Part shown: in pieces, positions 28,404 to 34,081 of the stretch
Position numbering within the stretch: the first letter of the stretch is position 1
Layout of the letters: each line of letters opens with the position of its first letter
Assembly (NCBI RefSeq): GCF_044647545.1
Contig: NZ_CP172818.1
Source: Escherichia coli
Lineage (GTDB): Bacteria; Pseudomonadota; Gammaproteobacteria; Enterobacterales; Enterobacteriaceae
Reading direction: 5' to 3' (one strand)
DNA: 64,000 bases
Position numbers and translations under genes: made by a program
Notes under the pieces: generated by a model
What the model saw: only the letters and a program-made list of their open reading frames with translations
Told to the model about the DNA's origin: nothing
Databases searched by the model: none

Positions 28404-30625
28404 AGCGTTGGTTCCCCCGGCGGCAACGGTTCAGCCGGGGTCGCGCCCGGAGCAGGCAGCACCTGATAAGTCTGCACTGGCGCGCGAACGCCCGCCAGGT
28501 CGAAATGTTTTTTCACCTGGCTGTCGAGGGCAAAGCGGACCGTCCACTGTTTGAGTGGCAGCGTGGTGAACGAAACACGCAGTGTAAACGCGGTATTGCT
28601 TAAGCCGACAATCCCGGCAAAATTCGGTTCACCAATAATCAGCCCGCGAATTTCTTCGTTTTCCATCAATTCCGCTACCGCATCTTTCAGTGCCTGATTG
28701 GCTTTATCAGCATCTTCATGGCGATCAACATCGTAATTTGCCACCACCGAACCAATGCCGCGGACGAAGTTAGCAAAGGTAGTTATAGAAGACCACGGAA
28801 TGATGTGATACGCCCCGGTATCCTGACGCACGCCCACGGAGCGAATCGACATCCGTTCCACAGTGCCGGTCAACGGCCCGATAGTCACCAAATCTCCAGT
28901 GTTCATACCGTTTTCAAACTGAATAAATACCCCGGTGATAATATCTTTCACCAGCGTTTGCGAACCAAACGAGATAGCCAGACCTAATGCCCCGGCACCT
29001 GCCAGCAATGGCGCGATATTGACGCCGATTTCCGACAACACAATCATGATGGTGATGGTACTGATAATCACCGCCAGCGCGTTACGAAACAGCGTAAGCA
29101 GGGTACGCGTGCGGGCGCTGGGTAGCGGGCGGCCATGAATATCCGAAGCCAGCCGGTTTTCGATCAAACTGGCGAGCACCGTCCAGCCAACCGCCGAGAA
29201 GAAAAGAATGAGTGCGATACGGATCAGGATATCTACGGTTTTCTGCCCCGCACCGTTTTGCAGCCAGTTCCAGAAATCGAACAATCCCCATGCGCTCAAC
29301 AGCAGCATTACCGCCACGCAGACGGTCAGAATACGCGCCGTTTTCAATGCCGCCGAAAGCCAGCCGTTCAGCCGTTTTTGCAGCTCCGGATAATTTCGCT
29401 GAGTATGTGGCGAGAGGGTGATGGTTTTCGCCAGCCAGCGGGAAAACATACCGGAAACAAATGCTGCGATACCAATAATCGCCAGGCTACGCACCGTTGC
29501 ACCCATCATAAATTTCAGGCTGTTGCCCGGATCGAACAACGAAAAGAAAAACAGCACGATAAAATAGGCGCTTGCCAGCCAGTGCCACACCAGCGCAAAG
29601 GCGCGGATAAACAGGCTGAAAAAGGCCAGCGAATGCTCCGCGAAGTTGAGCAAATGCTGGGTAATCTCTTTTTTATTACGAAAGATCAGGTACAGCGCCC
29701 AGACCGTCATGCACAGCATAATGATGACGTTCGCCAGCGCACCTATCTGTACATTCACCTGATTAGAGATAATCGGCACAGCCACAATCAGACCATAGCC
29801 AATCAGGCTGCTTAACCAGCTCAGGCGACGACTCCAGTAACGGGCGGTCTCGTCATGAATCGTGAACGGGCGCAGTTCAGCCACGTTTGGGCAAAAAATC
29901 AGGCGTAGTACGGCTTTGAAAAATTCAATCAGGGCAAAGGCGTTGAGAAACAAACTTTGTTGGAAAGCGATGGTGCGACTGCCCGCATTCAGGTTGTCGC
30001 TTAAAACCTGACCGACAAATAATGTCAGTGCCAGTAACAGCAGGTCGATAATAAACGCCCCGATAATCATCGCCGGAAGCTGCAACCAGTTACTGCGCTC
30101 ACGATTTTTTTGCCGCGCCCACTGGCCCATTTTGCGATACAGCGGAAGTGCGCACAGGCGAATCAGCCAGTAAAAACCAAACACTAATACCGCTAACATT
30201 GAAAAATGGGTCAACGCATTGCTGAAGGTTTGTGGATTAAACGGCTTATGCGGGGAGCCGGTGATATTGCGATAAAGTTGCCCGAAGCGGGCGGAAAGGG
30301 CTTCACCATAATGGCGGCTGACTTCGGTGACCTTTTGCAGCACGGTTTGCTCTTCAACCAGCGTCGGCGGCACGATCTTCGGTACGGGTTCTGCCGGGGG
30401 CGTCGCGGCGACGGTGCGCAACTGGTCGATCAACTCTTTACGCGAGGTGTCATTATCCAGCACATCCGCCAGTGCGCCATAGGCCGCTTTTTTTTGTTCG
30501 ATATCCGGTTCCGGGGCCGGTTCAGTCGTTGAGTCCGTTGTCGTTGTGGTTGTAACGCCGGGTATGGATACCGCGTGGGCAGGTGCGCCCAGCAGGCAGA
30601 AGAGGATGAACAGGATCCACCGCAT
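28400..30625 (-). CDS. ybiO: MscS-family mechanosensitive channel with large periplasmic N-terminal domain
   Basis: 741 aa from internal Met (MRWILFILF...) with signal peptide; MscS-like C-terminal core. Confidence 0.9.
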
Positions 30626-30707
30626 GACTCCTCCAGTGAGAAAACAGAGCAAAAAGATAAGTATAGATGCTGGGGGAGGAGCGATTTTAAATGAGAGGAA
30701 TCTGGTG

Positions 30708-30732
30708 TGCCTCCCTTTCGGGGAAAGGGAGG
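30708..30732 (-). terminator. Stem-loop after glnQ (end of glnHPQ operon)
   Basis: gcctccctttc-ggg-gaaagggaggc perfect 11-bp stem just downstream of the glnQ stop. Confidence 0.55.
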
Positions 30733-30737
30733 CTGAG

Positions 30738-31460
30738 TTAAGAGACGTGCTGCAAAAATTCCTGCAAGCGCTGGCTCGGTGGGTTCTTGATCAACACCTG
30801 CGGATCGCCATCTTCCGCAATCCGGCCTTTGTCGATAAAGATCAGGCGCGAAGCTACTTTCTCGGCAAAACCGATTTCGTGTGTCACGATCACCATCGTC
30901 ATCCCTTCTTCAGCCAGATCCTGCATAACCTTCAGCACTTCATGGCGCAGTTCCGGGTCAAGAGCGGAAGTCGGTTCATCAAACAGCATCATTTTCGGCT
31001 TCACCGCCAGCGCGCGTGCGATCGCCACACGCTGCTGTTGACCACCAGAAAGTTCGGAAGGGTAGTGATGTGCACGTTCTGCCAGACCGACTTTCGCCAG
31101 CAGCTCACGCGCCAGTTTTTCCGCCTCTTCTTTGTTCGCGCCACGCACGCGTAGCGGACCAAACATGACGTTTTCCAGCGCCGTCAGATGCGGGAAGAGG
31201 TAAAACTGCTGGAACACCATACCTGCTTCCTGGCGAATCAGGCGCTCGTCAACTTTCGGATCGTTAACCTTCAGGCCATCGACAATCAGATCGCCGGAAG
31301 TGATTTCTTCCAGTTTGTTGATGCAGCGCAGCAGGGTCGATTTACCGGAACCGGACGGCCCGATAATCACCACGACTTCGCCCTGAGCAATGTTCAAATC
31401 GATATTGTGCAGCACCTGGGTTGGACCAAAATGCTTGGAGACGTTTTTAAATTCAATCAC
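30738..31460 (-). CDS. glnQ: Glutamine ABC transporter ATP-binding protein
   Basis: 240 aa with Walker [10 protein letters not shown]. Confidence 0.95.
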
Positions 31461-32116
31461 AGGATTTTCATCCTTCTTTCCAGACGACGCAGAATAAAGC
31501 TCAGCACCAGGGTAATAATCAGATAGAACACCGCCACGGCGCTCCAGATCTCAAGGGCGCGGAAGTTACCGGCAATAATTTCTTGCCCCTGACGGGTCAG
31601 TTCCGCCACGCCGATAACAATAAACAGCGAGGTGTCTTTAATGCTGATGATCCACTGGTTACCCAGCGGCGGCAGCATACGACGCAGTGCCAGCGGTAAA
31701 ATGACGTAGCGAATGGTTTCCCAACGTGAAAGACCGAGCGCCAGTCCTGCTTCACGAAAACCTTTATGAATAGACAGCACCGCACCACGCGTGATTTCCG
31801 CAATGTACGCGCCAGAGTTGATCATGATGGTGACCACCGCCGCAGTAAACGGGTCGATGCGTAAGTCGTTAAACGCCATCGGCAGGGCGAAATAGATAAA
31901 CATCACTTGGACGACGATAGGTGTGCCGCGGATCACTTCAATAAAGACCAGCGCGACGTGGTTGGCTATCCAACCACCGAAGGTGCGTGCAAAACCTGCC
32001 AGCAATCCGATCACCAGGCCGCCAGCCAGACCGAGGACCGAGATCCACAGGGTCATTTTGGCACCTTCAATCAGAAGCGGAATGGCAGGCCAGATGGCAC
32101 TCCAGTCAAACTGCAT
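31457..32116 (-). CDS. glnP: Glutamine ABC transporter permease
   Basis: 219 aa ORF. Confidence 0.95.
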
Positions 32117-32200
32117 ATGTTGTTCCTGTTACCGTGGTGTAAATAATCAAATTCAGGGTAATTAATGGCCCCGGAGCGGGTTTGCGCCCCTCACCCTAAT

Positions 32201-32221
32201 CCTCTCCCCAGAGGGGAGAGG
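32201..32221. repeat. Intra-operon stem-loop/REP-like element between glnH and glnP
   Basis: cctctcccc-aga-ggggagagg perfect 9-bp stem. Confidence 0.5.
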
Positions 32222-32254
32222 GAACTGCCAGTGCGCCTTACAGGCGTAGCGTTA

Positions 32255-33016
<762 letters not shown>

Positions 33017-33055
33017 CTATCCACGGGACGATCCCCTGCGTGACATTCACATATA

Positions 33056-33071
33056 TGAAAAAATCGTGCCA
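33056..33071 (-). promoter_or_regulatory. Sigma-54 (-24/-12) promoter element, glnHp2
   Basis: Minus strand reads TGGCAC-gattt-TTTCA about 55 nt upstream of the glnH start. Confidence 0.55.
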
Positions 33072-33342
33072 GTTTTGCAACTCATTGATTTATCGAGATG
33101 CGGTAAAAACGTGATGCACGATTTATAGGGCAATACCCTGAAGATGCACCATTCTGGGGCACCAAACTGGTGCGCTAAAATTGTGCACTCAACACAGTGA
33201 TTATTTAGCGTAAAACCTGATGAAAAAACAATCTTTATGTAACGATTGTGTGATGATGTGGATACAAAAAATTTACTTAATCAGCTGGAGATAGCAGATG
33301 GATGCACTAAATAAGTGCGTTGAGGTGGGCTGCAAAACAAAA

Positions 33343-33363
33343 CGGCCTCCTGTCAGGAAGCCG
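33343..33363 (-). terminator. Terminator hairpin downstream of dps
   Basis: GC-rich hairpin flanked by T-runs on both strands, about 45 nt after the dps stop. Confidence 0.6.
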
Positions 33364-33404
33364 CTTTTATCGTGTACTAAAGTTCTGCACCATCAGCGAT
33401 GGAT

Positions 33405-34081
<677 letters not shown>

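Follow-up and report, generated by a model that had tools for sequence, protein, structure and literature searches.

A degenerate Box C repeat forms a hairpin at a mapped mRNA 3' end between glnH and glnP of Escherichia coli and probably protects the glnH message

The spacer between glnH and glnP in the glnHPQ operon of Escherichia coli carries a copy of the dispersed repeat known as Box C, PIT or TMECO. On the mRNA this copy contains a perfect hairpin, and an abundant RNA 3' end mapped in strain K-12 lies immediately past the stem. We consider it probable that the hairpin works in the manner of a REP element, as a barrier to 3'-to-5' exonucleases that keeps a stable glnH-only mRNA while the glnPQ part of the transcript decays. 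Both the Box C element and this type of mechanism were already known; what is new is that an unlisted, degenerate copy has been assigned to the family, that a mapped 3' end has been tied to this copy, and that unrelated hairpins have been found at the same site in other enterobacteria.

The copy lies in a 64-kb stretch of E. coli DNA (hereafter the window), in which the region ybiO-glnQ-glnP-glnH-dps-rhtA-ompX is arranged as in K-12 and the glnHPQ operon has 98.5% nucleotide identity to that of K-12. According to the ORF list and the K-12 annotation, the operon occupies the minus strand. The first gene, glnH (32255..33001; b0811 in K-12), codes for the periplasmic glutamine-binding protein and ends with a TAA stop codon at 32255-32257, after which comes a second in-frame TAA; glnP (31457-32116) codes for the membrane subunit and glnQ (30738-31460) for the ATPase subunit, and the last two ORFs overlap by 4 nt and together occupy 30738..32116. 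The same two sources gave the offset of +815003 that converts window to K-12 coordinates, and the 138-nt glnH-glnP spacer at 32117-32254 is equivalent to K-12 847120-847257. A scan of 30500-33500 found no promoter-like sites, and no repeat is annotated within the glnH-glnP spacer in NC_000913. An ORF at 32165-32665 (+), which starts within the Box C element and is antisense to glnH, was treated as spurious.

A repeat search confirmed the perfect 9-bp stem-loop that an earlier note on this DNA had described between glnH and glnP, and placed it at 32201..32221 on the minus strand, where a pattern scan and RNA folds also located it. The two 9-nt arms, at 32201-32209 (CCTCTCCCC) and 32213-32221 (GGGGAGAGG), are 100% complementary and stand 3 nt apart; on the mRNA the hairpin reads CCUCUCCCC-UCU-GGGGAGAGG and starts 33 nt past the glnH stop codon. 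The GC-rich setting that the same note had remarked on was borne out as well, with 67% G+C in 32170-32250 compared to 52% in the whole window. When folded in isolation, the minus-strand hairpin RNA had a free energy of −16.8 to −18.3 kcal/mol and accounted for about 94% of the ensemble. Even with up to three mismatches allowed, the exact hairpin pattern had a single occurrence in the window and none in 100 dinucleotide-preserving shuffles. A wider scan for perfect hairpins, with a stem of at least 9 bp and a loop of 3-8 nt, detected 10 distinct sites in the window, mostly at gene ends; with nested hairpins included these amount to 19 counts, about ten times the mean of 1.65 counts in the shuffles (n = 100). 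The glnH-glnP hairpin is therefore far beyond chance, yet it belongs to a class of structured sites. An Rfam search over 30500-33500 (evalue mode) returned nothing that reached the gathering score, and an overlap with whalefall-1 (RF01762), which scored 15.2 bits (E = 2.3) where the family requires 37, was discarded as sub-threshold noise.

Similarity to the fabI (envM) copy, together with blastn, identified the element as a Box C/PIT/TMECO repeat at 32187..32234 on the minus strand. Its 36-nt core (32187-32222) reads CCCTCTCCCC-TCT-GGGGAGAGGA-TTA-GGGTGAGGGG on the mRNA strand, and a 5' extension runs to a conserved GCAC at 32231-32234; a GCAC-N6-8 extension was seen by eye in many unrelated metagenome copies. 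The window core, CCCTCTCCCCTCTGGGGAGAGGATTAGGGTGAGGGG, and the type copy located upstream of fabI in K-12, CCCTCGCCCCTCTGGGGAGAGGGTTAGGGTGAGGGG, agree at 34 of 36 positions; the fabI copy is listed as the ninth in Table 1 by Holder et al. 2015 (PMC4666352). As described in that paper, the motif was first reported as Box C in the envM paper of Bergler et al. 1992, came to light again as PIT elements (Hoyne and Maher 2000), and was later renamed TMECO; the PIT work (Hoyne and Maher 2000, 2002) concerns the motif that the glnH-glnP copy shares, as does the G-quadruplex/hairpin switch named HPGQ by Kaplan et al. 2016 (PMC5100583). The glnH-glnP copy resembles the family in its core sequence, its three-block layout, its intergenic location, which is expected of the class, and the multiple occurrence of the motif in E. 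coli. A 65-nt query hit 78,831 places in 5,425 E. coli genomes by blastn, with a median of 15 per genome, indicating that the element is a dispersed repeat. In the literature examined, the family has been assigned no RNA-level role.

The label "REP-like", which the earlier note had attached to the context of the hairpin, did not survive this comparison, as the element is Box C and has no similarity to REP. Identity with REP or BIME (PU) elements was rejected because the sequence does not resemble the consensus palindrome of the GCCGGATG..CATCCGGC type, and both the true REPs after glnQ in K-12 and the REP-like hairpins of orthologous spacers in other species differ from Box C in sequence. In K-12, a segment of about 148 bp immediately beyond the glnQ stop codon contains two inverted REPs (L001:1455-1750; K-12 845481-845740). 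They are missing from the window strain (window 30734-30740), so that E. coli strains are polymorphic for this REP pair.

The strict Box C pattern, CCCTCNCCC-N3-6-GGGNGAGGG-N3-GGGNGAGGG, is matched by the fabI copy and by the orthologous spacer copy of one related genome (L006, see below), but the regular expression has no match in the glnH-glnP spacer of either the window or K-12. The miss is attributable to one base, since block 2 reads GGGAGAGGA, with GAGGA instead of GAGGG, and this accounts for the absence of the glnH-glnP copy from the 23 K-12 copies listed in PMC4666352. Judged by its sequence, the copy is best filed as a degenerate Box C by descent and not as a member defined by the strict pattern. 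The G-to-A change has a second consequence: the G-runs on the mRNA strand of the window copy are GGGG, GG, GGG and GGGG, the second having been shortened, so that the four runs of at least three G required for a canonical G-quadruplex are missing and the proposed triplex/G-quadruplex register is broken. The other difference from the fabI copy, a T for G in the C-arm, makes the glnH-glnP hairpin perfect, whereas most K-12 Box C copies have a stem mismatch at this position. The copy therefore departs from its family in two ways, by one base from the strict pattern and by the perfection of its stem.

A metagenome scan for the core yielded at least 120 contigs, whose flanks were unrelated and whose G+C content ranged from 37 to 73%. 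We do not regard this wide spread as new, since the motif has already been described in more than 260 genomes, including those of cyanobacteria (PMC4666352). In contigs with 42-53% G+C, a Box C-like core was found within a larger conserved unit, AGAATACCCCCCAGCTCTGCTGGGGGGATGAATGGCCT-core-GGGGAAATGATCTAATCATCACCCCCACCTTAATCCTCCCCC (L095, L099, L101, L109, L113, L114, L131, L143, L146, L155 and others, many of them from Ga0315xxx samples), which looks like a composite repeat in some organism.

Within E. coli, the Box C copy is fixed at the glnH-glnP site. The Box C spacer was present, at a coverage of 80% or more, in 5401 of 5426 complete genomes, and the alternative spacer type of L003 (described below) was found in none of the 5426. 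In an alignment of the window with four intact E. coli spacers (96-100% identity) and Escherichia lineage E69, which is a small sample, both stem arms were invariant in the five intact E. coli sequences, including the window, and in E69, while the loop (UCU, UAU or GCC), the tail and a second hairpin after the glnH stop codon varied. Between the window and K-12 the arms are identical and the loop is UCU versus UAU. The second hairpin, detected by a terminator-like scan, RNA folds and variant alignments, lies directly after the glnH stop codon at 32223..32253 on the minus strand; its core at 32232-32248 is CGCCU-GUA-AGGCG (5 bp), to which an outer helix is added. The core reads CGCC..GGCG in the window and CGCC..AGCG or CACC..AGCG in other strains, and it is disrupted in K-12 (CACC..AACG, no stem), so that this extra 5-bp GC hairpin is a feature of the window strain and not of K-12. 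A stable hairpin so near the stop codon of glnH could affect translation termination.

Three further genomes deserve mention. Two genomes labelled Escherichia coli showed only about 92% (L003, NZ_JAATUR010000020.1) and about 94% (L006, CP089930.1) identity to the window across glnHPQ, and they probably represent other Escherichia lineages; the spacer of L003 has a REP-like hairpin and that of L006 a canonical, strict-pattern Box C. In strain B2.3 (L083, NZ_CM185023.1), an IS21-family element (ISEc10, with istB annotated adjacent to it) resides within the 5' arm of Box C, at about the equivalent of window 32213-32221, where it parts glnH from glnP and leaves only CCCC of the arm.

We then compared the orthologous spacers of other enterobacteria. 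One genome per species was scanned, giving 80 loci with glnP, and the glnH-glnP spacer could be delimited in 78 of them, with lengths of 75-466 nt. Each of 80 spacers scanned, the window and L006 included, contains a hairpin of −14.9 kcal/mol or stronger, and all 79 spacers analyzed in this way (the 78 and the window) folded better than their own shuffles, with a median z of −3.4 and 92% below −2. Among the species scanned, Box C occupies the spacer only in E. coli and one related lineage (E69, L006). The hairpin types found across the spacers, namely terminator-like, REP-like, long palindromes, ERIC and Box C, are mutually non-homologous. The terminator-like type occurs in 22 of the 78 spacers, which include almost all the shortest (Kosakonia, Buttiauxella, Cedecea and others); it consists of GGGGCG..CGCCCC with a U-rich tract behind it (at least 4 U in 8), and it lies about 20-40 nt ahead of glnP. 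REP-like palindromes are present in Enterobacter, Citrobacter, Salmonella, E. albertii and E. whittamii, long composite palindromes in Klebsiella and Raoultella, and an ERIC element in one Serratia.

The last 23 nt or so before glnP (CACCACGGUAACAGGAAC..) occur as close variants in most of the 78 spacers, in forms such as ACCACGGUA .. ACAGGAA, with Serratia and some Klebsiella diverging. Against the REP-type spacers of E. albertii, E. whittamii and L003, the Box C spacer could be aligned only at its two ends, over roughly the first 10 nt, which are the stop-codon region, and about the last 35 nt. Insertion boundaries of Box C could not be drawn from this alignment, as the middle is a replacement without clear junctions. 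The finding that the same site is always occupied by a hairpin, with at least five unrelated origins across about 80 species, argues for selection on structure and not on sequence.

These comparisons also bear on the possibility that Box C is a passenger at this site, that is, a selfish repeat or one that acts at the DNA level (triplex, G-quadruplex or instability) and has settled in a permissive spacer, in which case the RNA 3' end would be an unselected by-product with no role in setting the ratio of the gene products. A passenger would fit the published picture of Box C, whose copies show no functional pattern in their scatter over intergenic DNA and have been tied to local rearrangement (PMC4666352), as well as the unrelated flanks and wide range of G+C content of the metagenome contigs, the presence of REP, ERIC and other repeats in the same spacer of other species, and the strain in which the hairpin is interrupted by an IS21-family insertion. 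However, the shortest spacers (75-88 nt) are free of repeats and still keep a strong hairpin, and the E. coli copy is fixed, with invariant arms. Furthermore, the third-strand/G-quadruplex register of this copy is broken (GGA instead of GGG) while its hairpin is perfect, which is the opposite of what a triplex or G-quadruplex function of the DNA would preserve. We regard a passenger repeat as an unlikely explanation, although it is the alternative that fares best against the protective hairpin.

The 3' ends of the operon mRNA were taken from the K-12 Term-seq study of Adams et al. 2021 (PMC7815308, supplementary file 1). Mapping of 3' ends had been put forward in the earlier note as a check, and the outcome was positive: a curated K-12 end, 847200(-), lies 4 nt past the stem and was recovered under all three conditions, with 30,332 reads in LB at OD 0.4, 130,459 in LB at OD 2.0 and 42,295 in M63. 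Transferred by homology, this end, measured in K-12, is equivalent to window 32197 on the minus strand, and the RNA would end in ...GGGGAGAGGAUUA-3'. Each entry in the sequence column of the table runs from 50 nt upstream of the end nucleotide to 10 nt beyond it, a layout that we verified on a row with a classic hairpin-plus-U7 terminator. In LB, the operon has no curated 3' end other than 847200(-), which stands alone between 838167 and 848057/848340, and in M63 its reads exceed those of the operon-terminal end 845561(-), which numbered 29,295. A stable upstream mRNA that ends at the hairpin, as would be expected with a REP-type stabilizer, is thus found in the K-12 data, with homology as the bridge to the window. 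The G-rich tail of Box C (UUAGGGUGAGGGG) and the short GC helix that follows it (GGGGCG-CAAACC-CGCUCC), placed by sequence and fold at 32173..32199 on the minus strand, fold no better than shuffles (z = 0.04); being downstream of the mapped 3' end, they are missing from the stable glnH RNA. In LB at OD 2.0 there is also a 3' end at 848057(-), or about window 33054, which lies 53 nt upstream of the glnH start codon within the glnH promoter/leader region (…TGGCACGATTTTTTCAT…). The TERMITe supplements (PMC12207403) have no entry for glnH, glnP or 8472xx.

The hairpin does not have all the features of a canonical intrinsic terminator. The tail after the stem, AUUAGGGU, has 3 U in 8 and no U-tract, and a consensus terminator scan did not call the hairpin. 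Rho-dependent termination is likewise not indicated at this site, as supplementary file 2 of PMC7815308, which covers one condition only, lists no Rho termination region at 8471xx-8472xx. A useful comparison is offered by the end of the operon, where a hairpin scan detected another hairpin without a U-tract after glnQ (GCCUCCCUUUCCCCGAAAGGGAGGC; 30709..30733, minus strand). The K-12 end 845561(-), seen in M63, is located 4 nt past the equivalent of this glnQ-distal hairpin. Close to it, at 845551, supplementary file 2 of PMC7815308 has a Rho termination region. Given the same geometry, the lack of a U-tract and the adjoining Rho region, 845561 is most likely a trimmed end, left when RNA terminated by Rho further downstream is shortened as far as the hairpin, and glnHPQ appears to end by Rho-dependent termination plus trimming. 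The glnH-glnP site is similar to a Rho-dependent terminator with a protective hairpin in having a precise 3' end immediately past a stable, low-U stem-loop, but it differs in that the Rho region is listed at the glnQ-distal end and not here. According to Dar and Sorek 2018, many steady-state 3' ends in E. coli lie directly after stable stem-loops that have no U-tract, and such stem-loops protect against PNPase and RNase II. Moreover, an earlier study summarized in PMC4666352 is said there to have found neither promoter nor terminator activity, nor an effect on RNA polymerase, for elements of the Box C family. The lack of a U-tract, the unlisted Rho region and the lack of terminator activity together favor exonuclease-blocking stabilization over termination.

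These same observations weigh against the hairpin being a partial terminator, or true attenuator, at which RNA polymerase would stop at or just after the hairpin in some rounds of transcription so that fewer polymerases reach glnPQ. Such an attenuator would produce a sharp and abundant 3' end close behind a GC-rich hairpin, as is seen here at a distance of 4 nt, and a terminator role has been proposed for G-quadruplex/hairpin elements inside operons (PMC5100583). In addition, the 22 of 78 related spacers with a terminator-like hairpin and U-rich tract suggest that attenuation may be the ancestral function of the site. The attenuator-like hairpins of Kosakonia, Buttiauxella and Cedecea share with the E. 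coli hairpin the position in the operon, about 20-40 nt before glnP, and a stability of −15 to −18 kcal/mol; unlike it, the GGGGCG..CGCCCC hairpins of other Enterobacteriaceae are followed by a U-rich tract, and they are not homologous to the Box C of E. coli. Since the E. coli tail has no U-tract, the hairpin is not in the output of the terminator scan, the family showed no terminator activity in the study summarized in PMC4666352, and the Rho region is listed at the end of the operon, we judge an attenuator at this site to be improbable. The earlier note had left open whether the hairpin is an attenuator or an mRNA stabilizer; the stabilizer gains from the 3' end 4 nt past the stem and from the hairpin in every orthologous spacer, attenuation stays unproven, and the evidence leans to the stabilizer side. 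That the site is a source of regulatory RNA, either as the end of an sRNA or sponge derived from the glnH 3'UTR or as an ion-dependent hairpin/G-quadruplex switch, is very improbable, for although a stable 3' end after a binding-protein gene recalls SroC in gltIJKL (gltI-gltJ; PMC4474525), GlnZ gives RIL-seq and MAPS signals on glnH-glnP, and hairpin/G-quadruplex switching of the Box C family was shown in vitro (PMC5100583), a short RNA from the site is unreported in the literature examined, nothing exceeded the Rfam threshold, the hairpin does not end in a U-rich 3' tail of the kind that Hfq-binding sRNAs usually have, and the window copy does not have four G-runs of at least three for a canonical G-quadruplex.

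Other Box C copies in K-12 were searched for associated 3' ends. Four other Box C-type hairpins have curated ends 4-11 nt downstream, at 164636(+), 632098(+), 3781065(+) and 4231270(-) (loci L207-L210), and these hairpins are located 48-102 nt after the stop codons of co-oriented genes (hrpB, cstA, lldD and yjbD). The cstA-ybdD copy, like that of glnH-glnP, lies between two adjacent co-oriented genes. In the tables of PMC7815308, no 3' end was found for strict type-B copies or for strict copies in the G-rich sense, and at most one for strict type-A copies with a stem mismatch; the effect therefore depends on context. The link between Box C as a class and 3' ends comes from text searches of one supplementary table in which the level of transcription is uncontrolled. 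A perfect stem is a weak candidate for the reason why a copy has a 3' end, as the mismatched Box C hairpins are less stable by only about 1 kcal/mol (−15.7 compared with −16.8 kcal/mol for the perfect hairpin). Earlier discussion of Box C was confined to DNA triplexes, G-quadruplexes and instability; that public 3'-end maps connect at least five hairpins of the Box C type with the ends of mRNAs hints at a role at the RNA level.

Returning to the exonuclease barrier, which we consider the probable explanation, the events could be envisaged as follows. The Box C hairpin, with a predicted stability of about −17 to −18 kcal/mol, would be transcribed within glnHPQ at its place shortly after the glnH stop codon. 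Longer operon transcripts would be cut, or would end, downstream in the AU-rich spacer or in glnPQ. A plausible candidate for an endonucleolytic entry site, for example of RNase E, is the AU-rich stretch AUUAAUUACCCUGAAUUUGAUUAUUUA at 32140..32166 on the minus strand, which is predicted from its sequence and the centroid fold to be largely single-stranded. PNPase and RNase II would then trim the RNA in the 3'-to-5' direction and stall at the hairpin, so that a stable glnH-only mRNA with its end 4 nt past the stem would remain and the glnPQ part would be lost. With glnPQ being separately repressed by GlnZ at the glnP ribosome-binding site, the message for the binding protein would come to exceed that for the permease and the ATPase. 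We infer the exonuclease block, the origin of the precursor ends and the effect on the protein ratio; the hairpin, its membership of the Box C family, its fixation in E. coli, the end mapped in K-12 and the occurrence of a hairpin at this site in all the relatives are observed.

REP hairpins serve as intercistronic mRNA stabilizers between malE and malF in E. coli and between hisJ and hisQ in Salmonella, as reportedly found by Newbury, Higgins and colleagues in 1987. The resemblance to glnH-glnP is close, in that a GC-rich hairpin without a U-tract is situated between the genes for the binding protein and a membrane component of an ABC importer, and in that a stable upstream mRNA ends at the hairpin. 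The two cases differ in that glnH-glnP has Box C and not a REP/PU sequence, and a single hairpin and not a BIME. The mechanism that we consider most likely for glnH-glnP would follow the logic of the malE-malF REP hairpin.

The same spacer holds the site at which glnP is reported to be controlled. A conserved block, CACCACGGUAACAGGAACAACAU, lies before the glnP AUG at 32117..32139 on the minus strand and includes the Shine-Dalgarno sequence and the reported GlnZ region. GlnZ, an sRNA from the glnA 3'UTR, is reported to repress glnP, and it pairs "just upstream of the SD" of glnP (PMC9731577; bioRxiv 10.1101/2022.04.01.486790). When GlnZ was pulse-expressed in Salmonella, glnP and glnQ decreased more than fourfold and glnH was not listed alongside them (PMC9731577), a result that fits separate fates for the glnH and glnPQ parts of the mRNA. 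The mapped glnH end is also relevant to this control, which takes place about 60 nt downstream.

If our reading is right, glnHPQ makes more message for the binding protein than for the transporter by means of a hairpin between its first and second genes, which would be the classical solution of ABC importers, built here from Box C instead of REP. A broader proposal, which we put forward tentatively and hold to be possible but less likely than the protective role at glnH-glnP itself, is that Box C constitutes a second REP-like class of hairpins that protect RNA 3' ends, and that the glnH-glnP copy has been domesticated and has replaced an ancestral terminator-like attenuator. In the course of domestication, the stem may have been perfected and the triplex/G-quadruplex register lost, and the attenuator may still be carried by other Enterobacteriaceae. 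Should this proposal be true, it would provide a function for a repeat family that has been without one since 1992, as well as an example of unrelated repeats succeeding one another in one regulatory role.
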